Virus record (IMG/VR): IMGVR_UViG_2811995017_000004
Span: 109,460-129,459 of that record
Reading direction: 5' to 3' (one strand)
Source: an uncultured virus (IMG/VR IMGVR_UViG_2811995017_000004)
Lineage: Duplodnaviria > Heunggongvirae > Uroviricota > Caudoviricetes
DNA: 20,000 nt
The position numbers and the translations under genes are program-made. Each line of letters begins with the position of its first letter. Position 1 is the first letter of the stretch. The notes under the pieces were generated by a model. That model was not told the DNA's origin. It saw only the letters and a program-made list of their open reading frames with translations, and made no database searches. Shown one piece after another: positions 33-19,551 of this stretch.

Positions 33-65
33 AAGTCGCTCATTAATTGGGCGACTTATTTATTA
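33..65. terminator. Probable bidirectional intrinsic terminator
   Basis: Hairpin AAGTCGCTC-attaatt-GGGCGACTT (33-57) with T-rich tracts on both strands. It overlaps the stop codon of the Arc-like gene. Confidence 0.7.
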
Positions 66-214
66 TCTTCTTTATTTTGATTATCCATAAATTCTTTAAG
101 AATGTGCACTATCTGTCCATTTAAGCTTCTCATATTGTCGTCCGCTTCTTTAACAAGCTTAGAATGAAGCTCCTTAGGAAGCCTTAATGTCATTCGTTCA
201 ATCTCCTTTGACAT
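56..214 (-). CDS. Arc-family ribbon-helix-helix DNA-binding protein (52 aa, not in ORF track)
   Basis: Hand translation: MSKEIERMTLRLPKELHSKLVKEADDNMRSLNGQIVHILKEFMDNQNKEDNK. It has the Arc pattern (TLRLP...L...A....RSLN.QI..IL) and a strong SD (GGGGAGG on the - strand, ~220-226). Confidence 0.88.
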   Translation of the reverse strand: MSKEIERMTLRLPKELHSKLVKEADDNMRSLNGQIVHILKEFMDNQNKEDNK

Positions 215-302
215 GGAACCCTCCCCTTACTTACACTGCTTTACACTAACCACACATACAGAATACTAACACAAATCAATCGAATAAAAAGTAAATATTT
301 AA

Positions 303-340
303 TTGACAACAGTGTCATTATGGTGTCATAATAGTGTCAT
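303..340 (+). promoter_or_regulatory. SigA-type promoter overlapped by three GTGTCAT direct repeats (putative operator)
   Basis: TTGACA at 303-308, 18-bp spacer, extended -10 TGnCATAAT at 324-332. GTGTCAT occurs at 312, 323 and 334 (11-bp period). Confidence 0.7.
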
Positions 341-364
341 AATAAATCGAGAGGATGACTAACA

Positions 365-619
365 ATGTGGAGTACAAATGTGTATGGCACTATTATTCTT
401 ACCGTTTCGCGCAAAACAGCAGCTTCAAGCAAATGTTTAGCAATACTGGATTCATACTATGCCATATCCGATGACAGAGTTGATTTAACAGAGTTAACTT
501 TGCTTCACCAAAATGGAAAAGTTCTAGGGACTGTAAAGATTCACAATATCGATTTAAGATGGAATGGTTTTTGTTCTAAGTTCAAAAGTGGAGATGTAAA
601 CTGTGGCAGTAATAATTAA
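365..619 (+). CDS. Hypothetical protein (84 aa)
   Basis: ATG with GAGAGG upstream. First ORF after the promoter and overlaps the next ORF. No family recognised. Confidence 0.5.
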   Translation: MWSTNVYGTIILTVSRKTAASSKCLAILDSYYAISDDRVDLTELTLLHQNGKVLGTVKIHNIDLRWNGFCSKFKSGDVNCGSNN

Positions 620-2060
620 TCAATTTGTTAAAGTCCGAGCAAGTAACAGAAACAAAACTTATTATGCCAATTTGGGTTATACGCCAAATGAAAAACAAGA
701 ATTCAAAATCCATTTAAAAGATCTCCCATTATCGAGTCCTTCTGAGGTTAAAATTGTATGTGATTATTGTAATAAATGTTCAAGTAAACCCTACAAAAAT
801 ATTTCTAGTCAAAAAAACCATTTTTGTTCACGAGAATGTGCTAACAATTTTCTAATAGGTAAACCTTCGTGGAATGCGAGGCTAATACATATTAAATGCT
901 CAGAATGTTCAAAAGATATTATAAGATCTGAATGGGAAACTAAACAGCATAAAAACCTTTTTTGCAGTAGATCTTGTGCAGACAATTTCATGAGAAGGAA
1001 TAGAAAAGGAAAACTGAAAGTAAAACGATATGAATTAAAATGCTCTTTCTGTAATGCGACTATTGAAAGAACAGAAAATGAGTTAAAAAGAGCTAAAAAT
1101 CATTTTTGCTCTCAAAAGTGTTTGAGTGAATTCTCTAAAGGTAAGCCGAAAAATACTAAAGAAAAGATAAAGAAACTATGTCACAATTGCAATAAGCCAA
1201 TATACATGACTCCATATAGAGCTTTACAAAGTAAACGAACATTTTGCTCAAGAAATTGTCGTTCTAGTTGGATGAGAGAGTCAGATGAGTACAGAAAAAT
1301 TGTTTTTAAAGGAAAAAGCGTGGAGCTTACATGCTCTAATGAATCATGTAACAAAACATTCACTCGGAAATTTTCTGAACTAAAAGAAAAGAATTTTTGC
1401 TCTATGGAGTGCGCAAAATCACTCAAAAAACTATCCTTTATAAGGAATAATCCTAATCCAAAGAAAGAAAAAATAAGTGTCAGCTGCTATACATGTGGTG
1501 CTGGTAAAAAGGTACATGAGAGTGTTTTTAAAAAGAATAAACATTTTTTCTGCTCCTATGACTGCTACCATCAAAAAAGACTTGAAATTACTGAAAAGAA
1601 AGTTACTTTGACTTCAATTCATAAAAAAATAAATAGGCTCTTGAATGAATGTGAAATAGAACACATCAATGAAAAAAACATTGGATATTTTTCATTGGAT
1701 ATATATCTACCTGAACATAAACTAGCCATTGAAGTTATGGGAGATTATTGGCATGGACATCCACAAAGGTACAATTTCAATAGTCTCAATAACATTCAAA
1801 AAAAGAACATCAAAAGAGACTACAGAAAGAACAGATATATCACAAAGAATGGCATAGTAATTCTCTACCTTTGGGAGAACGATATAAATCAAGATTTTGA
1901 GTTGTGCAAACAGCTTATTTTGAAATTTATTTCAAAAAGAGACGGTCTTCAAAATTTTCATAGTTTCAATTGGGCACTCGACAGTAATTCAAAAATAGTT
2001 TTACGAACCGAACTTTTTTGTCCCTTTTTTGATTATTTTCAAGGAGATGAACAAAAATGA
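603..2060 (+). CDS. Putative endonuclease: six Cys4 Zn-ribbon repeats plus a C-terminal Vsr/DUF559-like nuclease domain
   Basis: Six CxxC...FCSxxC units: CDYC/FCSREC, CSEC/FCSRSC, CSFC/FCSQKC, CHNC/FCSRNC, CSNESC/FCSMEC, CYTC/FCSYDC. C-terminal LDIYLPEHKLAIEVMGDYWHG...KRD..K......G..ILYLWE.DI matches the Vsr/DUF559 pattern. Very Lys-rich. Confidence 0.8.
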   Translation: MAVIINQFVKVRASNRNKTYYANLGYTPNEKQEFKIHLKDLPLSSPSEVKIVCDYCNKCSSKPYKNISSQKNHFCSRECANNFLIGKPSWNARLIHIKCSECSKDIIRSEWETKQHKNLFCSRSCADNFMRRNRKGKLKVKRYELKCSFCNATIERTENELKRAKNHFCSQKCLSEFSKGKPKNTKEKIKKLCHNCNKPIYMTPYRALQSKRTFCSRNCRSSWMRESDEYRKIVFKGKSVELTCSNESCNKTFTRKFSELKEKNFCSMECAKSLKKLSFIRNNPNPKKEKISVSCYTCGAGKKVHESVFKKNKHFFCSYDCYHQKRLEITEKKVTLTSIHKKINRLLNECEIEHINEKNIGYFSLDIYLPEHKLAIEVMGDYWHGHPQRYNFNSLNNIQKKNIKRDYRKNRYITKNGIVILYLWENDINQDFELCKQLILKFISKRDGLQNFHSFNWALDSNSKIVLRTELFCPFFDYFQGDEQK

Positions 2061-2308
2061 AAAAATACGTTAATCATTTGACATTGACTATAGCCGCTTG
2101 CCAAACAACACTTGGAAACTCTGAAGATGGAGCTAAACGATTTACAGAGTATGATCTCTTGGATTTTGGAGAGTTTGAAGAACTTAAAGAAATAACATTA
2201 ATAAATTTTGACGGTGATAAGATAACCCTTCAAGCCTTTAATATGGGGCTTGAAATTGAGGACACCGAAGAAATCGATGAAGAAGATGAACTGCTATACA
2301 TAAAATAA
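2057..2308 (+). CDS. Small acidic hypothetical protein (83 aa)
   Basis: ATGA overlap with the nuclease stop and SD AAGGAG (2041-2046). About 21 D/E against 7 K/R by hand count. Confidence 0.8.
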   Translation: MKKYVNHLTLTIAACQTTLGNSEDGAKRFTEYDLLDFGEFEELKEITLINFDGDKITLQAFNMGLEIEDTEEIDEEDELLYIK

Positions 2309-2320
2309 ATGATTTTCTTG

Positions 2321-2350
2321 ACTCTGCTAATGCAGAGTTTTTTTATTTTT
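2321..2350 (+). terminator. Intrinsic terminator closing the nuclease cassette
   Basis: ACTCTGC-taat-GCAGAGT followed by TTTTTTATTTTT. Confidence 0.8.
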
Positions 2351-2396
2351 GTCCACCTCTCCCCCACTCTTCGCTTTGAAAGGATGTGATTATTAA

Positions 2397-5300
2397 TTGA
2401 GCCAACAGTTGAAAATTGTAGTTACTCCAGTTGCCGACACCTCCGCTCAATCAGTTGAACAAATTAACAAGCAACTTAAAACACTACAATCTAAGTTAAA
2501 CTCCCTTCAGCTCCAAACAAATATTGATGCTTCTGCTTTAAAAACCCTCAAAGAATTCTCTTCTGCAATTGAAACATATCAAAAAAATCTTAAGAATTAC
2601 AATCAGACAGTTAAAGAAACACAAACGGTCATTAAGAATGCTGATGGGACAACTGAAAAAATCATTCAGCAGCACAAAAAGAATGGAGAAATACTTCAGC
2701 GAGAAATTAAGACGATTGATAATCGAAATCAAAAGATTCGTCAAGAAACTCAAGAAACAGCAAAATTAACCTCTGAAATTCAAAAGCTTGGCCAAGCTCA
2801 AAAGATAATTGAACGTCAAAATGCTCAAGGTATCAAGACAGGCACTACTCAAAAAAATCGTGATGGTTTTAAGGATATTACGTACAATCTCGACCAAAAT
2901 GGGAATATTAAAAACTCAACCACTGTAACAAATATTGATCAACAAAGAAAAGCAATCGAACAGCTTAGAGTAAGCCTACAAAGACTAAAAGAGCAAGGGC
3001 AACTGTCTGAAGTCACGCTCTCCTCTCTTGGAAGAAAAATTAATTTAGTTCAGTCTACAGAACAAATTGAAGCACTCAGAGTCAAGCTTAAGACTCTTGA
3101 TGACAAGTCAGCAGCAGTTGCAAAGACTAAAGAGCTTGAAAGGCAGTTAGAACTATATAGAAGACAAGCACAGGTAAATACTCAGAACCTGCAAAACAGA
3201 TACGGCAGCTCATTGAGCAATACAAGTAATCAACAGCTTCAACAGTATTTGAATTCAGTTAATCAATTAACTGCAAGGACACCTAATCTAAGAAATCAGA
3301 TGGCTAGTCTTAATGTGCAGTTTAGGGAAATGTCCTCTAACATTGCTGCTACTACAAGGCAGACAATGAGTTTTGGAGAGCAGCTTCAAGTAGCAATGTC
3401 CCGCGTGCCTGTGTGGATGGCATCTATGACACTTTTTTATGCACCTTTGAGACTGCTTCAAGATCTCACCAGCCAAGTAATATCGCTTGACACTCAAATG
3501 ACTGGCTTACGACGGGTTATGGACTTACCTGATTATAAGTTTAACGAGCTTCTTCAAAAATCTATTGATTTGAGTGATGAGTTAGCAAACAAGACTTCAG
3601 ATGTTCTAACTATAATGAACGAATTTGGGCGTATGGGTTACAAAGATGATGAGCTATTAGATCTAACCAAGACAGCTCAAATGATGGAGAACATTAGTGA
3701 ACTACAACCTGAAGATACCGTTAAAGCTCTCACAGCAGCGATGGTCAACTTCGGAATTCAATCTAAAGACAGCTTAAAAATCGCCGATGCATTGAACGAG
3801 GTTGACAATAATTTCCAAACAAGTACATTGGACTTGGCTCAATCAATGAGAAAGTCAGCTGCCGCTGCAAAAGTATATGGCGTGAGTATGGAACAGCTTT
3901 TAGGATACACAACTGCTATTCAATCTAGTACCAAAGAATCTGGTAACATTGTCGGTAGAATAATTGCTGACATTAAATCTCTTCTGATTGACTTGGAAAT
4001 CCTAACGTTCAGTCGAGGACGACAAGGGGCAAGCGTAATGGTAGCCTGAACGACTGAGTGAAGAGACACAGAAATGTGAAGCGACAGTCTGAACTCTATG
4101 GAAACATAGAGAGTGAGGTTGAAGCGCCTCACCGCCATTTATAATGGTCAGTAGCCTTTTGGTGAAAGTAACAGAATTGAACGCCTTAAAAACAATATTC
4201 GCCAGAATCCAAACAAATGGAGCAGCCATTAAAAGTCTTGAGAGTGTAGGAATTGCAGTTAAAGATGTAGGTGGAGAAGCTATACCTGTATCTGAAATCC
4301 TTGAGAATCTTGCTTCTAAGTGGGACAGTCTCTCTGAGGCACAGAAGCAGCAAATCGGGGTTTCGTCAGCAGGTATGTTTCAAAATACTCGATTAATTAT
4401 AGTCGCCTTATACAGTAATGTATAAGTGAAAACCCAGTGAACCCTATTGCTCAGGGGTGTGTCCTTTTCACAGGATGCTAACGGTGGAACTCTAAGGGAG
4501 AAATCCTATGACAATACCGTGCCAAGCCTATTTTAGGAAGGTGTAACGACTAGCCTAACGGCGTAGAACAGACATTGAGCTACTGTTCAAAGTGCTGGGC
4601 ATCCTTTTAGGATGAAGATATAGTCTAGTCCCCTACTTAAATATCGGGAAACCGAGGGTATAAACGTTTTAGCGCTCATGGAGCAATGGAGTACGGCTAC
4701 CAAGGCCACTACTACTGCAATTAACAGCCAGGGATCTGCAATGCGTGAGCAAGAACGATACTCTGAAAGTTTGGAAGGACGCCTCAACAGATTGTCTGCT
4801 TCTTGGTCAGGTCTTGCAGCAAATGCAGGTGATGCTTTCCTTTCTGATGGAATAATTTCATTTGCCGAAATATTGAAAGATATAGTCCAAGCAGGAGCAA
4901 GCGTAACAAAAACAATTGGATTTTTGCCAAGTGTATTCGCGACAGCATCTGCTGCAATTCTCCTGTTTAATAGCAATCTAAGGTCAACCATGATTCTTGC
5001 CGGATCAAATATGGGAACCGCGTTAAAGTCTCTTATAGCTAATTTTAGTTTGCTCAATGTGGCTTCAACTGGTGCTGCCGCAGGACAGAGAATGCTTGCA
5101 ATTGCGACTAACGTAACTTCTGTTGCAATAACTACATTAGGCAAAGTAACCAAAACAACAATGGCTTTTCTTGCAGGTGCTGTACTGCCTATGGCAGGTT
5201 TCATGGCTTTAGGCTTCGTAATCGAAAAACTTGTCTCTGCTTTTTCTGATGCTAAACAAGAACAAGAAAAGCTTGCAGAGTCACAAAAGAAAAGCGTTGA

Positions 5301-8300
5301 AGCAATAACCACAAATAAAGAACAGACCGATCAGTTAATACAAAAATATAAAGAGCTGCAAAAAGCAAAAGATAATGGCTCCCTCTCCCCTGACAAGGAG
5401 CAAGAATATCTACAGGTCACGCAACAATTAGCACAAACGTTCCCTAATTTGATTTCTGGCTATGACTCCCAAGGTAATGCCATCATTAAAAATAACGAAG
5501 CATTAGAAGATGCCATAAAATACACCAAAGAATTAGCTGAATTAAACAAAAAAGACATTCAAACTGGCGCAAATAGCAACTTTAAAGAAACCCTCAGTGA
5601 TATCAGTAATCTGACTGATGAAATGAAAGAGTATCAAAAAGTTGCAGACCATTATAAAAACAACGATCGGCCATTCTGGGATATCTTCGACAGCGACAGT
5701 GATTATAAAAATTTTGGGATTAAAGCTGAACAACAAGCTCTTCAAGTCAACCAGAAGCTATCTAGCTCACAAGCTAAACTTAGAGAGCAAGTGCTGCAAA
5801 CTGTTGACGCTTATAACTCCATTAAAATCAACCCTCAGTTAACCAAAGATATCAACGAAGCCTTCAATAAAATTGACTTTAGTAAGATGACTTCTGATGA
5901 ATTAGAGTCGTTTTCCATTAATGTTTCAAAATACATGGATGACATTCAGAAAGCATTGGAATCAGGGAATAAAGTTGATTTCTCAAGAGCATCTCAAGCA
6001 CTTCAGAATTTAATTAACCAACAAATCAAAGGTTCTGATGAAGCTGACAAACTTTCCTTATCTTATGATGACCTAAAGAATGCTATAGACTCTACAAAAA
6101 ATGCTGCTGATTCTGCAAAGGTCACTTGGGATGAAAATGGTGAAGGGGTAAACGAATTAACAGGAGAAGTCGAAGATTTAAGTCAAAAGCTCAAGGATGC
6201 TAAAGGCGATCTAGAGGCAATAAAAGCTGTAATGGACGATTTGGTGGCTTCTCAGCAAACAGAACTAGCTATTTCTGCCCTTCAAAATGAAGCATATGAT
6301 TCTTTTGCTGACTCCATCTCCCCTCTCAATGAACTGCTTGAGAAAATGGCTGAAGGAAAAAGCATCTCAGCTGCTGAAGCAATGAAACTGGTTCAAAAAG
6401 AAAAAGACTTGGCTGGAGCTATTAGTGTTGAAAACGGCGTAGTTAAATTAAACCGAGATGCTATCATAAAACTACGTGATGCAAAACTTAAAGCATACAA
6501 TGATATGCAAAAGTCAGTTAAACAGGATCTAATCAACCAGGCAAACGCAACAGTAAAGAAAATAAAGAACTATGGTTTAGAGGTCAAATCAATCCAGACT
6601 GTTGCCGATGCGCAAGCCAACCTTTCCAAAATGAGAAAACAAGTAGACACTTTGATGGAAAGTGGCAATATCCAGATGGCAATGCCAATCATTAAAGAAA
6701 TAAACGAGTTGAGCGACGTCACTGGACAGTTAGAAGATCTGGATAAAATGGCTGAATTGGCCAACTCATCTTTAAATGAAGTTGGTACGTCCCTTGAGAA
6801 ATATTCTGATGAACAAGAGAAAGCCAGCAAAGAAACTGAGAAATCCAAATACGTCATTGATAAATATAAAGAAGCCCTTGAAAAAGTAAATGCAGAAATT
6901 GAGAAATACAACAAGCAAACCAATGATTATCCTAAATGGTCACAAAAATACAGAGACGCAATCAATAAGGAAATCAAGGCATTAGAGCGTAAGAAAAAGC
7001 TAATGCAAGATCAGATTAAACTGCTGAAACAGCAAATCAAATCTGGTTATATTCCTCAAACTGGACTTGTTACCTCCTCTTCCTCTTCTGGTTCTTCATC
7101 AGGATCATATTCTTCTGGAGGATCATATTCCGGAAAATACTCTTCTTATATTAATACTGCAGCAAGCAAATATGGTGTTGACCCTGCACTAATCGCTGCG
7201 ATTATTAAACAAGAATCAAACTTCAATGCCAAAGCTCGTTCTGGCGCTGGAGCAATGGGTTTGATGCAACTCATGCCTGGTACTGCAAAAAGTCTAGGTG
7301 TAAACAATGCATATGATCCTTATCAAAACATCATGGGCGGTACAAAATATATCGCTCAAATGCTCAATAAGTTTGGCGGCAACATTGAAAAAGCATTGGC
7401 TGCTTACAATTCGGGGCCAGGAAACGTTATTAAATACGGTGGCGTCCCTCCTTTCAAAGAAACACAAAATTACGTTAAGATCATTCTTTCCAACTACAAT
7501 AAGAGCTTATCTACTGCGACATCAAAAATTGCTAATTACTACACCAGCGCGAATGGATTTAGAGTAAGCTCAAAATTTGGACAAAAAGAAAGTGGTCTCC
7601 GCTCCTCCCCTCATAAAGGATTAGACTTAGCAGCTAAAGCAGGTACTCCTGTTAAAGCTTTAAAAGCTGGTAAAGTCATAACCGCTGCCTATTCTAAAAC
7701 AGCAGGCAACTGGGTTGTCATTCAACAGGATGATGGAACAGTTGCAAAATACATGCACATGCAGAAAGGTCTTAAAGTCAAAAAAGGCGATGTTGTTTCT
7801 GCTGGTCAAACAATAGGTAAAGTTGGAAGCACTGGACATTCAACAGGAAATCACCTTCACTTACAGATTGAACAGAACGGAAAACCAATCGATCCAGAAA
7901 AGTATATGAAAGGTTTGACGTCTGACCTATCTCAATCTGAAGCCGAAAGACAACAGGCTATTGCTCAAGCAAAGTCTGATCTAATCGGCTTACAAGGTGA
8001 TTTGGACTCAGTAAATGATCAGATCCAAGAACTTCAATATGAATTAGTTCAATCTAAGCTCGATGAATTTGATAAGCGTAAATCAGATTTGGAAGTTAAG
8101 ATTGCTAAAAACGAATCCTTAGCTAAACACTACCTCACCGACAGCAAAGAATTCCGTAAATACACTAACGAGCAAAAGAAAGCTGTTGATGAGCAGCGGA
8201 AAATTCAACAGGAAAAGCTCAATTGGATTAACAAAGAGCTTAAAACAAACAAAAAGCTCAACTATGCTCAACGTGATCAGCTTAGAGAAGAACTGAAACA

Positions 8301-9606
8301 GGCCAAATTAGATTTAATCTCCCTTGAGGATCAAGTCAGAGAGCTACAAGGTCAGCTTGTTCAATCTAAAGTTGATCAAGTACTCAACAACATCGAGAAA
8401 TCAGTCAAGAAAACTGAGGGTAAGCTTAAAGATGTTGATATCAAGATTCAGATGACTGAGGATGACAATCAAAAAGTCAAATACTACAGTCAGCAAGTAA
8501 AATTGATTCAACAGCAACAAGCTGAAGCCAAAAAGTACATCAAACAGCTTGAGGAACAGAAAAAGGCAGCTAAAGGTTTTCCTGATATCCAGAAACAAAT
8601 CACAGAGGAAATTGAAAACTGGAAAGATAAACAAAAGGACTACAACCTTGAGCTTTATAACACCAAGAAGTCCATTAAGGATATTTACAAATCACTTGCA
8701 GATGAAGTCGTTTCTATTTATAAAGAAATGTACGAAAAGATGCGTGATATTGAACTTGAAGCCCATCGAAAAGCAACTCAAAACATCATTGATGAAATTG
8801 ACAAAGAAGACGATGAAGCCAAGTTCCAGAAGTCCCTTAAAGAGAAACAGGAATCCATTCAGGAAACAAAAGATCAAATCAATAAGCTGTCTTTAGATGA
8901 TTCTGATGAAGCCAAAGCAAAATTAAAGGATTTGGATAAACAGCTTCAGGAACAAGAGCAAGACCTTGAAGAGTTTCTGAAAGATCGTGAAAACACGAAA
9001 CGAAAGGAAGCACTCCAAGATCAGCTTGAAAAAGATGAAGAATCAATCAACAAAAAGTATGATGACCTTGTTAATGATGATCGAGCCTTTAAGGAACTTG
9101 AGAAAAAACTTTTGGATGGTAAGATAACCGATATTGCTAAACAGCTTAATGAATTCACTAAGTTCATCAACAGCAACATGGATTCCATCGGTAAGAGTAT
9201 TTCAAACAACCTTATCGATAAACTTAAAGAAGCTTCCAATGCTTTAAATGTCGTGATTGCCGGAAATAAAACTGGCAAGAAGGTTTCCTCTTTTGATGTT
9301 GGTGGGTATACCGGAAAATGGGGAAGCTCAGGAAAGCTTGCTATGCTTCATGAGCAAGAGCTTGTATTGAACAAATCTGATACAAGCAATGTCCTGAAAA
9401 TTGTTGAGCTGACTAGAAACATCTTCGGAGACATTCCAACAAAAGCTACGCTCCCTTCCCCTTTTACTGCACCTAATCAAACGACAAGCAATCAAACAAT
9501 CAATATTAACTTTAACGTGGATAAAATGACTGGTTCTAAGGCTGATGCAGAGAAATTCTTAGGAGAAGTGTATAACATTGCATCAGCTAGAGGAGTGAAA
9601 ATTTAG
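2397..9606 (+). CDS. yomI: Tail tape measure protein with SLT lytic transglycosylase and M23 peptidase domains (CwlP/YomI-like); spliced join(2397..3956,4180..4393,4667..9606), 2237 aa
   Basis: TP901-type TMP core ([17 protein letters not shown]). SLT motifs [25 protein letters not shown] (~7140-7500). M23 motifs HKGLD, YMHM, HLHLQ (~7560-7910). Splicing joins [17 protein letters not shown] and QNTR-F-LALME. Exons total 1560+214+4940=6714 nt, i.e. 2238 codons. TTG start with SD AAAGGATGTG. Confidence 0.92.
3957..4179 (+). ncRNA. Group I intron 1 in the tape measure gene (223 nt, no internal HEG ORF)
   Basis: Exon ends in U3956 and intron ends in G4179. P1: UGUCGGU pairs with GCUGACA (3966-3972), giving U.G at the splice site. 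P3 UCUCUUC(3978-84)/GAAGAGA(4060-66). P7 GACUG(4052-56)/CAGUC(4085-89). P8 CACA-GAAA-UGUG. P9 CUCUAUG-GAAA-CAUAGAG. Confidence 0.88.
4394..4666 (+). ncRNA. Group I intron 2 in the tape measure gene (273 nt, IA-like, no internal HEG ORF)
   Basis: Exon ends in U4393 and intron ends in G4666. P1 CGAU/GUCG(4402-05) with U.G. P2 CUUAUACA-GUAA-UGUAUAAG. P3 CCCAGU(4433-38)/GCUGGG(4594-99). P7 GACUA(4548-52)/UAGUC(4621-25) with J8/7 GAAGAUAUAGUC. Two hairpins between P7 and P3' (P7.1/P7.2). P8 CAUCC/GGAUG. Confidence 0.92.
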
Positions 9607-13895: not shown

Positions 13896-16460
13896 ATGAA
13901 TTATTTAAAATATTATGATCCACTCTTGGAAAAGTGGGTCTCTATTGAACTTGAAGCAATAAGCTCAGACGGGGAAAGATGGACAGCCCCAATGATTACA
14001 GAAAAATTTAAAGAAGTATTAGGCAATATCGGCGACGTTAAACAAGATATCATCAATGTCAAAATTGAATTTCAAAAAGAAATCACCAATGTTTCGGATA
14101 AGATCAGCAACGTCGAAAAGATTATTGGTGATGTATCAAAGTTTAAGGTTATTGGTGACACCCTAGTTGATAAAATCATTAATGAATTCAATATGAGAAG
14201 TGTTAATGTTAAAGATTTTGGAGCAAAAGGAGACGGAGTAACTGACGATACCGCTGCGTTTGAGAAAGCTATAGGAAGTGGATTTTCAAGTATTTACGTT
14301 CCTGATGGCACATACATGGTCAAAGGAGTTAAACTTCCCTCTTTCACAAAACTTTATGGCAATGGTATGAAGTCAGTGATCAAACTTCATCCTGATACCC
14401 CTCCTACTACACATGTCATTACAAACAAAGATTATACAAATGGTAACTCATATATCCAGATCGAAAATCTGCTTGTTGATTGGAATTTAAATAAAAAAGA
14501 CAACAAGATTGGATCGGGGCCAAATGCAAGCTGCGTAAACATCACTAACAGTCAATTTGTTTGGATTAATAAAGTTCACGCAAAAGATGCTGGTCTTCAT
14601 GGTTTTGATGTCACCTCTCCAAAGTACAACTCTTCCTCAGATGGTGCTGAATACTATCAGCCTAAAGGTTCCAAGTACGTTTGGATCGACAATTGTACAG
14701 CTTGGAACTTCGGGGATGACGGGTTCACAACTCACTTTTCTGACTACATTTTCTTTTCAAATTGTTATTCATATGATGGAAATGGTTCGGCTCACCGTGC
14801 TGGAGGCAGTAACACAAATGGTTTTGAGATCGATGATGGTTCTAAACATGCATGGCTTATGAACTGTCATAGTAGAAAAAATTGCAGAGGTTTTGAAGTA
14901 AAAGCGCACGCTTTAGCACCTGCAGCCCAAGATGTTCATTTTGTAAATTGTTCCTCTGAGAATGATATTCGAGGCTTTGACTTCAGACATATTGGATTCC
15001 ACCGCGCTTCAGATCCAGTTTCAAAAAGTGCTTTTAATGTTAGTGCTACAAATTGTAGAGTTCTTAACCCTATTTTCAACAGCTTGTATGAAGGACTGTC
15101 CCCTAGAGCCTTGGTAATCTCCGCATTTCGCAATGTAAATATAAACAACTTCACAGCAATTGGAGATCCCTCTTATGACTACAAAGGAAATCCTGCAATT
15201 GCAACTCAATTTAAATCTAGAAACATTAATTTAAACAATATTTCCGTTTCTGGCTTCAAGACGGCTGAAGCAGACATTTACGTGATCGGAGGAAGTCAAA
15301 AATCTGACAACGTAAATATAAGCAATATCAATTCCTTTGAATCAGCGAGAGTCGGTGTAAGAATCGGCAGCAAAACAGAGAATGTAAAATTAACCAATGC
15401 AAGCTTAATCGGGTATGGTCGGAAAGATAGTGTTGGTGTTTATTGCTCGAATTCTCAAGCTTACATATTTGGAGTCACTGCTGAAAAGTATGGCAAAGCT
15501 TCAACAATCGCTGGCTATGATTACTCATATGTTCCAAACAACTTTAAAGGTGGGACAAGAGCTGCCACTACTTCTGGACATGTTAAAACATCGACGGGTT
15601 TTATCGCCGCTTCTTCAGGTACGCCAGAAGTTACTGGAGAAGCATCTGCAGCTATTGGAACAACTGGAGGAGCAAAGGCTAAAGGAGTTCGAACAGGGGT
15701 TTATTCTTCATCTGGCGGAAGCTCTGTTGATGGTTCCCGTAGCACAGTCATGTCTTCGAATGATTCCCATATTGAAGGTGAAAATGTCTCTAGAACCATT
15801 CTGTCTTCTGGTGGGGTTAAGCTCGGAGCAAATGATCGCTATATGGTTGTTGGCGGATATGGAGAAACCCCTTCACGTTCAAATATAAAGTGGATGCTTA
15901 ACTCTATGAATGGAGACATCTCCGCCACAGGGAAGATCAATGGTGGAGCAACATTCAGTGACTACGCGGAGTATTTTGAAAGCCTTGATGGCAAAAGCAT
16001 ACCTTCTGGAACCATCGTTACCCTTGAAAAAAATAAAATAAGACCTGCTCAAAAATCTGAATTTATGCTCGGCGTTATATCTGAAACAGCAGGAACTGTA
16101 CTTGGAAGCGCTGAGGTTTATTGGAAAGATCGTTATTTAAAAAATGAGTTCGGCGGTCTTATTTATGAAGATGTTCTTGATGAAAAAACAGGCGAATACG
16201 TCAAAATGCCTGTTGAAAACCCTGAATGGAAGTCAAAAAAAGATTATATACCAAGAGAACAAAGACCTGAATGGAATATCGTAGGACTTGTTGGACAGGT
16301 GTATATTCGCATTGATGGAACTGTCGAAGTTGGAGATTGCATTGAAGCAAATAACGGAATAGCTACAAAATCAGAGAACTCCACTTGGAGAGTTATGGAG
16401 ATTACAAAACCATACTTTAAAAAGGATGGATATGGAGTGGCAATTTGCTTTATTAGATAA
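13896..16460 (+). CDS. Receptor-binding appendage/tailspike: pectin-lyase-like beta-helix plus C-terminal peptidase G2 autocleaving chaperone (phi29 gp12-like)
   Basis: VNVKDFGAKGDGVTDDT beta-helix start. FGDDGFTTH, NGFEIDDGS, KAHALAPAA and FRHIG motifs. C-terminal S|DYAEYFES.DG, GVISETAG, LKNEFGG, EW..VGL.GQ and GYGVAI, as recalled for phi29 gp12. Confidence 0.88.
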   Translation: MNYLKYYDPLLEKWVSIELEAISSDGERWTAPMITEKFKEVLGNIGDVKQDIINVKIEFQKEITNVSDKISNVEKIIGDVSKFKVIGDTLVDKIINEFNMRSVNVKDFGAKGDGVTDDTAAFEKAIGSGFSSIYVPDGTYMVKGVKLPSFTKLYGNGMKSVIKLHPDTPPTTHVITNKDYTNGNSYIQIENLLVDWNLNKKDNKIGSGPNASCVNITNSQFVWINKVHAKDAGLHGFDVTSPKYNSSSDGAEYYQPKGSKYVWIDNCTAWNFGDDGFTTHFSDYIFFSNCYSYDGNGSAHRAGGSNTNGFEIDDGSKHAWLMNCHSRKNCRGFEVKAHALAPAAQDVHFVNCSSENDIRGFDFRHIGFHRASDPVSKSAFNVSATNCRVLNPIFNSLYEGLSPRALVISAFRNVNINNFTAIGDPSYDYKGNPAIATQFKSRNINLNNISVSGFKTAEADIYVIGGSQKSDNVNISNINSFESARVGVRIGSKTENVKLTNASLIGYGRKDSVGVYCSNSQAYIFGVTAEKYGKASTIAGYDYSYVPNNFKGGTRAATTSGHVKTSTGFIAASSGTPEVTGEASAAIGTTGGAKAKGVRTGVYSSSGGSSVDGSRSTVMSSNDSHIEGENVSRTILSSGGVKLGANDRYMVVGGYGETPSRSNIKWMLNSMNGDISATGKINGGATFSDYAEYFESLDGKSIPSGTIVTLEKNKIRPAQKSEFMLGVISETAGTVLGSAEVYWKDRYLKNEFGGLIYEDVLDEKTGEYVKMPVENPEWKSKKDYIPREQRPEWNIVGLVGQVYIRIDGTVEVGDCIEANNGIATKSENSTWRVMEITKPYFKKDGYGVAICFIR

Positions 16461-19126: not shown

Positions 19127-19194
19127 AAATGCTGTACAAAGCGGCTCACTCAAGGGCGGTCTGGCTCACTCCCGATAGAAAGGGGGTGAGAAAA

Positions 19195-19278
19195 ATGTCA
19201 ACTTATCAGAGTTTAACTTTGATGTTTATGTTTGGAATGTTCATTCTGGCATTGTTGACATATCTAAAAAAGAAATAG
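19195..19278 (+). CDS. Type I toxin, BsrE/BsrG/BsrH (holin-like toxin) family, 27 aa; not in ORF track
   Basis: MSTYQSLTLMFMFGMFILALLTYLKKK: one TM helix with a basic C-terminus, close to BsrE/BsrH as recalled (STFQALMLM..FG.FIIALLTYIKKK). Strong SD AAAGGGGGTG. The 5'UTR CTCAAGGGCGGTCT is complementary to the 3'UTR AGACCACCCTTGAG. Confidence 0.9.
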   Translation: MSTYQSLTLMFMFGMFILALLTYLKKK

Positions 19279-19551
19279 ACCACCCTTGAGACCTGGAAAG
19301 TTACAGGGGTAGTCTATTTCAATAGAAAAGACACAAAAGAGCTTTGGCCGCTATTGGCCTGCTTTGTGCGATTGACTCGACTGTTCCCAGCAGTCGGGTC
19401 TTTTTTATTTTATGCATTTTTTCATAAAATAAAACTAATTTGCAATACTTTTGCTTAATAAAATGGCTTATGTTCCATGCTAAGATGTAATGCATTTCAT
19501 TAATCTAACTAATATAACATTATTATGCAGTTTTATTGTGTTGTTGCTTCA
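19266..19551 (-). ncRNA. Putative cis-antisense antitoxin RNA (SR4/SR5-like)
   Basis: Consensus leftward promoter at 19558-19586. A - strand terminator hairpin (AAATAGACCACCCTTG...CAGGGGTAGTCTATTT, 19273-19319) with a U-tract lies over the toxin stop. Convergent overlap with the toxin 3' end. RNA ends are approximate. Confidence 0.7.
19374..19411 (+). terminator. Terminator of the toxin mRNA
   Basis: GACTCGACTGT-tccca-GCAGTCGGGTC followed by TTTTTTATTTT. Confidence 0.85.

Follow-up and report, generated by a model that had tools for sequence, protein, structure and literature searches.

A free-standing zinc-ribbon EDxHD endonuclease gene beside the intron-bearing yomI gene of an SPbeta-like provirus, a candidate for collaborative intron homing

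The last 20 kb of a 129-kb IMG/VR provirus (IMGVR_UViG_2811995017_000004), a stretch of 20,000 nucleotides that we refer to as the window, hold a tail module that matches the one of SPbeta. Upstream of the tape-measure gene of this module, the yomI homolog, lies a free-standing open reading frame (ORF 603-2060) for a zinc-ribbon/EDxHD (Vsr-like) endonuclease of the homing type, and yomI itself is interrupted by two ORF-less group I introns. Relatives of the nuclease are found inside or just before tape-measure genes, and most are encoded in group I introns at the same positions at which SPbeta-like phages carry introns without an ORF. We lean towards collaborative homing as the explanation, in which an active free-standing EDxHD nuclease of this tape-measure lineage would cut the yomI gene of a rival genome and thereby spread the introns.

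Results

The nuclease gene (603..2060, plus strand) encodes a protein of 485 amino acids (aa), is intact and has full length compared with its relatives. It starts with a GTG codon ten nucleotides after a GGAG sequence, and the resulting N-terminus matches that of relatives starting with Met. A first-pass annotation, made from the DNA letters, had described six CxxC...FCSxxC repeats fused to a C-terminal nuclease motif, and both are borne out. Using a regular expression, we find six units of the form C-x2(4)-C...(F)C(S/T)-x2-C, starting at C53, C99, C147, C193, C244 and C295 (aa 53-321; 759..1565, plus strand). They are spaced by ~46-50 residues and contain 24 of the 28 cysteines of the protein; at least two such units occurred in 3 of 2000 shuffles. 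Matches to known families are weak, with zf-FCS (PF06467) giving E 0.016 and 15.5 bits (gathering threshold 22.4) over four stretches of the protein, and the MYM-type finger 2das E 0.048. The PF06467 model reaches 24.2 bits on the related cassette of L103 (L-numbers are the locus labels of this analysis), and precomputed PF06467 matches are present on many relatives. An AlphaFold2 model of the protein has a mean predicted local distance difference test score (pLDDT) of 91.3, with repeated hairpin-helix units above 90. Pattern count, family matches and model describe six C4 zinc ribbons of a zf-FCS/MYM/TRASH-like type, for which a role in DNA binding can be predicted. No NUMOD or helix-turn-helix (HTH) family matched the protein, whose N-terminal 320 residues comprise the six C4 ribbons and a small N-terminal domain.

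The Vsr-like/EDxHD nuclease domain (aa 333-445; 1599..1937, plus strand) contains the residues D366, E377, H384, D406 and K409. The motif D366...L-A-I-E377-V-M-G-D-Y-W-H384, previously placed at about 1692-1760, is located at nt 1698-1754. The Vsr family TIGR00632 matches aa 333-427 with E 7.7e-7, at 29.4 bits and thereby far under its cut-off of 97.85, and Pfam Vsr gives E 0.016 with 15.5 bits against a gathering threshold of 27. In a phmmer search, aa 337-442 align with the catalytic domain of I-Bth0305I (PDB 3r3p) at E 0.057. The Vsr-like identity suggested for the domain is upheld by the structural model: Foldseek retrieves Vsr (1cw0, E 2.3e-5) and 3r3p (E 3.2e-5), the latter with a target-normalised template modelling (TM) score of 0.82 and 26-27% identity, and 1vsr is likewise among the best matches. 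The crystallized 3r3p protein is a D196A/H213A mutant; D366 and H384 align with its two substituted alanines, and D406 aligns with the third catalytic residue, an Asp. The catalytic residues of I-Bth0305I are Asp196, His213 and Asp222 (PMC3239194). D366, E377, H384, D406 and K409 are invariant in 64 aligned relatives. On the basis of model and alignments we consider the product of ORF 603-2060 to be a real EDxHD-type (Vsr-like) homing endonuclease, presumably an active one.

A large protein collection contains 427 relatives of the nuclease at E ≤0.001, the nearest of which (53-44% identical) are named from Bacillus pumilus, B. safensis and Niallia. Scanning with an alignment of the 16 closest relatives provided 90 loci, 10 in genomes and 80 of 164 in viral contigs; the 201 relatives in metagenome contigs overlap with these 164. 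As the seed of a profile for searching all ORFs of the 90 loci, we took residues 381-620 of the L107 yomI, which is uninterrupted; they correspond to the PhageMin_Tail region. In 89 of the 90 loci a PhageMin_Tail domain is encoded on the same strand as the nuclease, the exception being a weak archaeal hit. The nuclease gene is located within a split tape-measure gene in 77 of these 89 loci, with pieces of the domain on both sides in 69 of the 77. On the yomI-derived profile, the breaks fall at ~83-95 in 38 loci and at ~134-155 in 37, and are mixed in two. The positions were checked with Pfam PF10145 on 48 flanking pieces from 24 loci, which was chosen over pairwise alignment of the distant pieces, as the latter was uninformative. 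Matches were obtained for 20/24 upstream pieces, ending at 84-87 or 122-140, and for 12/24 downstream pieces, starting at 83-87 or 130-151. Two intron sites of SPbeta-like yomI genes have the same positions: site A, at PF10145 ~86 (yomI codon ~465), which is occupied by an ORF-less intron in other SPbeta-like loci, and site C, at ~135, with intron C of the window at 134/136.

Ten copies of intron C served to build a covariance model, with which 67 non-duplicate loci were scanned. Of the 57 intron-class loci among them, 44 have a ribozyme core that begins at the stop codon of the nuclease and extends to the downstream exon, and a further 2 give a partial match. In L011, the nuclease gene is flanked on either side by a group I signal in a narrow Rfam search (E 2e-5 each). 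When three loci with intron-encoded relatives were searched with Rfam over their entire length by E-value, no group I signal appeared. Some nuclease-bearing introns share 74-80% identity with intron C at their 3' ends. The location in split genes, together with the ribozyme core, thus indicates that these relatives are intron-encoded, with the ORF in the 5' part of the intron.

Some of the nuclease-bearing introns contain additional, unexplained sequence: ~530 nt between ribozyme core and downstream exon in L029, L030 and L033, and 1.8 kb between nuclease gene and ribozyme core in L087. In L006, a Lachnospiraceae contig, a skipping-rope RNA (Rfam RF02924, 74.7 bits, 14633-14715) is found downstream of the tape-measure region.

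In the other 12 of the 89 loci, and for metagenome relatives, the nuclease gene stands by itself, 0.2-2 kb ahead of the tape-measure gene. Nucleases of this free-standing type are longer and, by pattern count, have a median ribbon number of 5.5 compared with 2-3. Homologs of orf84 and orf83, the two small genes that flank the nuclease gene of the window, were undetectable at the free-standing distant relatives, where the flanking genes differ. Among 17 evaluable free-standing relatives, ten have at least one ORF-less intron in the tape-measure domain (L004 only probably). As the window enzyme belongs to a lineage found in or before tape-measure genes, the tape-measure gene is its most likely target.

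In the window, yomI consists of three exons, all on the plus strand. Exon 1 (2397..3956; PF10145 positions 3-134) ends in U and is followed by the group I intron C (3957..4179; 223 nt; PF10145 ~135), which ends in G. Exon 2 (4180..4393) continues from PF10145 position 136, and intron D, also of group I (4394..4666; 273 nt), follows U4393 and ends in G4666. Exon 3 (4667..9606) encodes the SLT and M23 peptidase domains. Both introns are recognized from Rfam and the reading frame; their boundaries were set from the frame and the U/G rule (last base U in the 5' exon, G in the intron). The 2,285-aa yomI protein of SPbeta matches in three pieces in a tblastn search (2397-3956, 4180-4395 and 4672-9576). 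The Rfam group I signals, at 3935-4111 for intron C (25.3 bits, E 5e-4) and at 4385-4647 for intron D (43.3 bits, E 2e-9), are both below the gathering cut-off of 50; Rfam at this threshold missed both yomI introns, which were seen only in an E-value search of a short stretch. Neither intron contains an ORF of its own; as the first-pass annotation had noted, neither encodes an endonuclease, and the nuclease gene stands free beside the intron-bearing gene, with 1,896 nt between its stop codon (2060) and the start of intron C (3957).

Intron D is 91-95% identical to the site-A intron of other loci (L100, L102 and L105, near 7395-7680). At both sites the intron follows ...CGAT and starts with TAATTATAGTCGCC, and the 3' exons are unlike each other. 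Site D of other loci is occupied by a different intron, of 336 nt. A stretch of 52-54 nt in the 3' core of intron D (4613-4666) is 96% identical to 66 phage records, from Staphylococcus, Enterococcus, Brochothrix and Bacillus phages. Some of these matches are annotated near DNA polymerase genes, and the core is widely shared.

Co-occurrence of nuclease gene and introns was followed in 68 SPbeta-like loci, obtained by a scan with an alignment of yomI N-termini and including near-duplicates and 16 loci of an earlier scan; the window is the 69th. Introns were mapped by blastn with intron queries, and the counts include near-duplicate contigs and are uncorrected for shared ancestry. Four intron sites are present within ~130 codons of yomI: A (~465), B (~503), C (522) and D (~593). 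Their combinations are patchy, with zero to three introns per yomI, and 51/69 loci match no intron query. Intron C occupies site C in 14 of the 69 loci, including the window, in copies 87-99% identical to that of the window; with L013, which also has a copy at this site, the range is 85-99%. Among all 69 loci, intron C is present in 4/4 with a zinc-ribbon/Vsr gene and in 10/65 without. Within clade A, in which exon 1 is 80-83% identical to that of the window, the numbers are 2/2 with the gene versus 0/7 without.

The two clade-A loci with intron C have the same last nine bases of the 5' exon as the window (ATYGTCGGT). The seven intron-less clade-A loci have ATAGTGGGA at this place, a synonymous sequence. 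In one of the two loci with intron C, the exon bases that directly follow it are of the donor type too. Donor-type exon flanks are as a short co-conversion tract from break repair would leave them.

In two loci (L093 and L096, ~7200-8075; the same contigs as L114 and L117), exon 1 extends through codon 518, and ~245 nt further on codons 504-525 are repeated ahead of intron C. Part of the exon is duplicated around site B in this way, perhaps as a scar of imprecise break repair.

A first, quick maximum-likelihood tree of the nuclease region (93 rows) contains a clade of mostly site-C nucleases (40 rows) and a clade of mostly site-A nucleases (44 rows), with support from the Shimodaira-Hasegawa-like approximate likelihood ratio test (SH-aLRT) of 86 and 89, respectively. 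The clustering of site labels in the tree was reached in 0/500 shuffles. The three other SPbeta-like zinc-ribbon nucleases (L116, L124 and L166) group with the site-C nucleases. For a second tree, 29 rows were added and the long-branch sequences L011, L060, L075 and L090 left out; here the window protein is placed in a separate clade of 22 rows (SH-aLRT 90), the members of which are 40-55% identical. All five members of known context in this clade are free-standing.

The nuclease gene is part of a 2.2-kb cassette (58-2275) that sits between the yomJ-like terminator and yomI. The spacing between yomJ and yomI is 54 nt in SPbeta, compared with 2.3 kb of extra DNA, including ORF 603-2060, in the window. 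A related provirus with flanks 87% identical (L102) lacks window positions 58-2275 and has ~17 nt there instead, with homology ending at window position 57. Nucleotide homology to seven close relatives is lost only at ~540-2042, which is the nuclease gene itself. The replacements in this slot include proteins of 591 or 774 aa that combine a nuclease-like C-terminal end with homing-endonuclease-associated repeats (two or three; PF18780, E 2e-24 to 3e-36), a 608-aa protein and a Bro-N protein. Three more replacements belong to the zinc-ribbon/Vsr type; they have 474-594 aa, are 28-34% identical and contain ribbons before as well as after the nuclease. This gene turnover is what selfish nuclease genes show.

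A decayed nuclease cassette is found in L115 (the same locus as L094), where a 71-aa remnant at 3842-4054 matches the C-terminal end of the L116 zinc-ribbon/Vsr protein (594 aa) at 97% identity. The remnant is located directly before orf83; orf84 is absent in this locus, and so is intron C.

Discussion

Under collaborative homing, events would start in a cell that contains both the prophage or phage and a related SPbeta-like genome. There the enzyme would cut the yomI gene of the other genome in the cluster of intron sites (codons ~465-595), for which an uninterrupted site C is the best candidate. Repair from the nuclease-bearing genome would copy the ORF-less intron or introns, and a conversion tract of sufficient length would also copy the nuclease cassette. 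The enzyme's own yomI copy would be spared, with intron C (and perhaps intron D) splitting the target site. Nuclease activity, target site, self-protection by the introns and mobilisation are in each case what we infer from sequence comparison. A more far-reaching version is put forward tentatively, as less probable than its negation: the zinc-ribbon EDxHD lineage would have been caught both free-standing and intron-embedded at the same two sites, with the window enzyme cutting site C (or A/D), shielded by its own introns and driving their spread, and with the number of ribbons (0-9, pattern count) setting the length of the recognized DNA.

The first-pass annotation had proposed both this partnership and a co-occurrence check, and each holds in part. 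In its favor are the intron-encoded relatives at the PF10145 positions of ORF-less SPbeta-like introns, and the presence of intron C in every locus with the gene. Several observations weigh against it. Ten loci have intron C and no zinc-ribbon/Vsr gene at the slot, and the one locus with the 71-aa gene remnant has no intron C. In seven of the 17 evaluable free-standing relatives (L007, L050, L079, L088, L184, L225 and L226), the PhageMin_Tail domain is uninterrupted; one of them is L184, with a nuclease 48% identical to that of the window. An intron is therefore unnecessary for coexistence of nuclease and tape-measure gene. The proposed target would follow from relatives that are only 28-54% identical to the window enzyme. 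In the second tree, the window clade joins the site-A lineage weakly (support 77), and phylogeny thus cannot assign the enzyme to site A or C. Site C is 1.9 kb away from the nuclease gene when measured from the 3' end of the gene and 3.4 kb when measured from the 5' end, a long way for co-conversion, and close proximity of nuclease and intron has been stressed as needed (PMC2790892). The donor-type exon bases around intron C could instead reflect selection for P1/guide pairing. For intron D, the ...CGAT shared by its two sites would fit reverse splicing via a short guide better than nuclease-driven movement. Finally, the unrelated nucleases found in the slot also fit targets in the flanks of the slot.

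This last point is central to classical intron-less homing, which we regard as unlikely, though the most serious of the alternatives. Here the nuclease would cut near its own slot in genomes with another nuclease or none, for example at the empty junction of yomJ terminator and yomI leader or in the orf84/orf83 flanks, and would spread only itself; the introns would be bystanders that move via recombination, reverse splicing or lost intron-encoded nucleases. The precise presence/absence polymorphism, with its empty site in L102, is in line with this, as is the exchange of only ~540-2042 between the conserved orf84 and orf83, with unrelated nucleases, other zinc-ribbon/Vsr forms or Bro-N as replacements. 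The usual target of a free-standing homing endonuclease is a conserved gene next to it (PMC6083498), and movement of the introns without the nuclease would agree with the ten loci that have intron C and no gene, and with the two sites of intron D sharing only CGAT. What such slot homing leaves unexplained is the occurrence of relatives inside tape-measure introns in 77/89 loci, the fact that free-standing relatives keep a position directly ahead of the tape-measure gene even in distant phages with differing flanks, and the 4/4 and 2/2 association with intron C.

Less probable still is a resident nuclease that is no longer homing, either domesticated and serving the phage, by exclusion of superinfecting relatives under the control of an Arc-like repressor, or decaying and nearing loss. 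Domestication would suit the place of the window protein in an old and diverse free-standing clade, as opposed to a recent escape. It would also suit the divergent Arc-like gene, the promoter-like site with three 11-nt repeats and the terminator that accompany the nuclease gene (described below), as well as the seven free-standing relatives beside uninterrupted tape-measure domains. The rapid turnover in the slot, on the other hand, is typical of selfish elements, and exclusion by cutting the tape-measure gene of a rival would mechanistically be the same act as homing. That such genes decay is seen from the remnant in L115, but the ORF of the window is intact, and its catalytic residues and 24 ribbon cysteines are all conserved.

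A Vsr-type T:G mismatch repair or restriction-type nuclease unrelated to mobile elements is highly improbable: the best curated family match is TIGR00632 and one database source names a relative as an AbaSI family restriction endonuclease, but the TIGR00632 score is far below its cut-off, the gene lies in a phage tail module with no adjoining cytosine methylase, the zinc-ribbon arrays are long, and relatives reside inside group I introns.

The EDxHD family is known from introns, inteins and free-standing genes (PMC3239194, PMC2677866), and NUMOD motifs are described in only some of its Vsr-like members (PMC2677866). Its member I-Bth0305I is encoded in a group I intron in recA of the Bacillus thuringiensis phage 0305phi8-36. 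It has the same fold (3r3p) and the same catalytic Asp/His/Asp as the window enzyme, and both are phage-borne in Bacillus. Similar to the tape-measure relatives described here, the Vsr-like ORFs of recA introns are located in the 5' (P1) part of the intron (PMC2677866). In contrast to the six zinc ribbons of the window enzyme, I-Bth0305I has two NUMOD/HTH motifs (PMC3239194). I-Bth0305I is also intron-borne and targets recA, whereas the window lineage is tied to the tape-measure gene and the window copy is free-standing; the sequence similarity between the two is marginal. The Hef-type enzymes of Campylobacter phages, which have been placed in the same Vsr-like family (PMC3239194), give weak tblastn matches to the nuclease (28-31% identity, aa 232-404). 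No zinc-ribbon array is present in the matched parts of these enzymes, and their genomic contexts differ.

The arrangement in the window resembles two known cases of free-standing nucleases with partner introns. In cyanophage S-PM2, the gene for F-CphI is likewise a free-standing nuclease gene beside a gene (psbA) with an ORF-less group I intron, and the logic is the one proposed here, with an intron that splits the target and a nuclease that mobilises the intron (Zeng, Bonocora and Shub 2009, as cited in PMC6083498 and PMC2790892). F-CphI has an Endo VII motif, is encoded directly beside psbA and has demonstrated cleavage; the window enzyme has a Vsr fold, lies 1.9 kb from the intron, and its cleavage is predicted. 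Unlike F-CphI, the nuclease lineage of the window also exists in intron-encoded form at the same sites. The distance between F-CphI and its intron is reportedly smaller than the 1.9 kb seen here. The second case is MobE, again a free-standing nuclease near a gene (nrdB) with a non-autonomous intron, for which mobilisation would proceed by co-conversion (PMC2790892). MobE is an HNH enzyme, its cleavage site is not the one at which the intron is inserted, and its function has been demonstrated by genetics (PMC2790892), whereas the window enzyme is known from sequence and model.

For the target gene, the closest parallel is formed by the introns TMP-IVS1, TMP-IVS2 and TMP-IVS3 of prophages of the Bacillus cereus group, which likewise occupy several tape-measure sites and are mostly ORF-less (PMC2504315). 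As observed here, similar introns can be present at more than one site there, and one site can contain different introns (PMC2504315). That survey reports only one nuclease-bearing tape-measure intron, of the H-N-H type, and no Vsr-like or zinc-ribbon nuclease, be it free-standing or intron-encoded (PMC2504315). The spread of these immobile tape-measure introns between phages was called puzzling and left open (PMC2504315).

The yomI locus offers a testable answer to this question, namely a tape-measure-specialised lineage with intron-encoded and free-standing members on the same sites. In searches of open-access full-text literature we found no report of a nuclease lineage that is both intron-encoded and free-standing at the same target gene, of EDxHD nucleases with zf-FCS-like zinc-ribbon arrays, or of introns in SPbeta-like yomI. 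If the proposal is true, the lineage shows both states of a proposed pathway for the birth of mobile introns, and the zinc-ribbon array is a natural modular scaffold for DNA recognition. More than 150 natural variants are available with which the step from free-standing to intron-encoded nuclease could be tested and the reading of DNA by zf-FCS-like ribbon arrays mapped. These variants could also show whether such nucleases shape mosaic boundaries in the tail modules of SPbeta-like phages.

Other features of the cassette and the provirus

The left edge of the cassette (57/58) coincides with the end of a terminator-like stem-loop after the yomJ-like gene (33..57, plus strand; terminator scan). 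A 52-aa Arc-like ribbon-helix-helix protein is encoded on the minus strand (56..214), divergent from the nuclease operon, and matches Pfam Arc above the cut-off (E 5.5e-6; 26.6 bits vs 20.4). We consider this protein a candidate repressor. On the plus strand, a promoter-like site (TTGACA-18-CATAAT, 11/12 matches, with TG) and three 11-nt direct repeats are found at 303..344. The site is a consensus match only, as the region contains 11 promoter-like sites versus 9.7 expected in shuffles. The repeats, GTGTCAT(T/A)AT(G/A) at 312-344 (GTGTCATTATG once and GTGTCATAATA twice), cover its -10 region, and together with the Arc-like gene they look like a repressor/operator pair of the nuclease operon.

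The nuclease gene is enclosed by two small genes on the same strand, both without a family. The 84-aa orf84 (365..619) overlaps the nuclease start with its 3' end and is 61-76% conserved in relatives regardless of the nuclease that follows. The 83-aa, acidic orf83 (2057..2308) overlaps the nuclease stop with its start codon (ATGA) and shows 89-98% conservation in relatives, and it contains the right edge of the cassette (2275/2276). A second terminator-like stem-loop (2320..2339, plus strand; terminator scan) precedes yomI. With the Arc-like gene, the promoter-like site, the overlaps of orf84, nuclease gene and orf83 and the terminator-like hairpin, the cassette looks like a transcription unit of its own. 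Two ideas on the small genes were dropped. That orf84 and orf83 are halves of one gene split by insertion was rejected, as they are adjacent or fused in no locus, and a role of the acidic orf83 as nuclease inhibitor was set aside, given its 89-98% conservation beside unrelated nucleases and Bro-N.

In tblastn searches with SPbeta proteins, the yomJ homolog ends at position 46, and yomH, yomG and the remaining SPbeta tail genes are located downstream of yomI. A megablast search of the window against phage records gives ~75% matches to SPbeta phages downstream of position 6808 and no match for the nuclease gene. The BsrG family (RF01412) matches over its full length at 19133-19398 (125.6 bits, E 6e-30); BsrG is an RNA of an SPbeta type I toxin-antitoxin pair.

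Outside the window, the provirus contains other homing elements, at 14247-15788, 27029-28179 and 73750-73986. Two further introns of group I are found at 15.6 and 27.0 kb (98 and 61 bits), a 291-aa GIY-YIG ORF is located near 73.8 kb, and LAGLIDADG motifs occur in an intein-like frame of 851 aa near 14.3-14.8 kb and in a 335-aa frame near 28.1 kb. A search of the provirus for HNH_3 found none. These distant homing genes were set aside as partners of the yomI introns, being >35 kb away from yomI.

The locus is a mosaic, with identity to relatives shifting abruptly at the nuclease gene and around the intron cluster (2043-3430 vs 3431-3935; 4712-5190). The clade-A loci are 93-95% identical to the window up to ~3430 and then have no nucleotide match until 3936. 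The mosaic boundaries coincide with the mobile elements.

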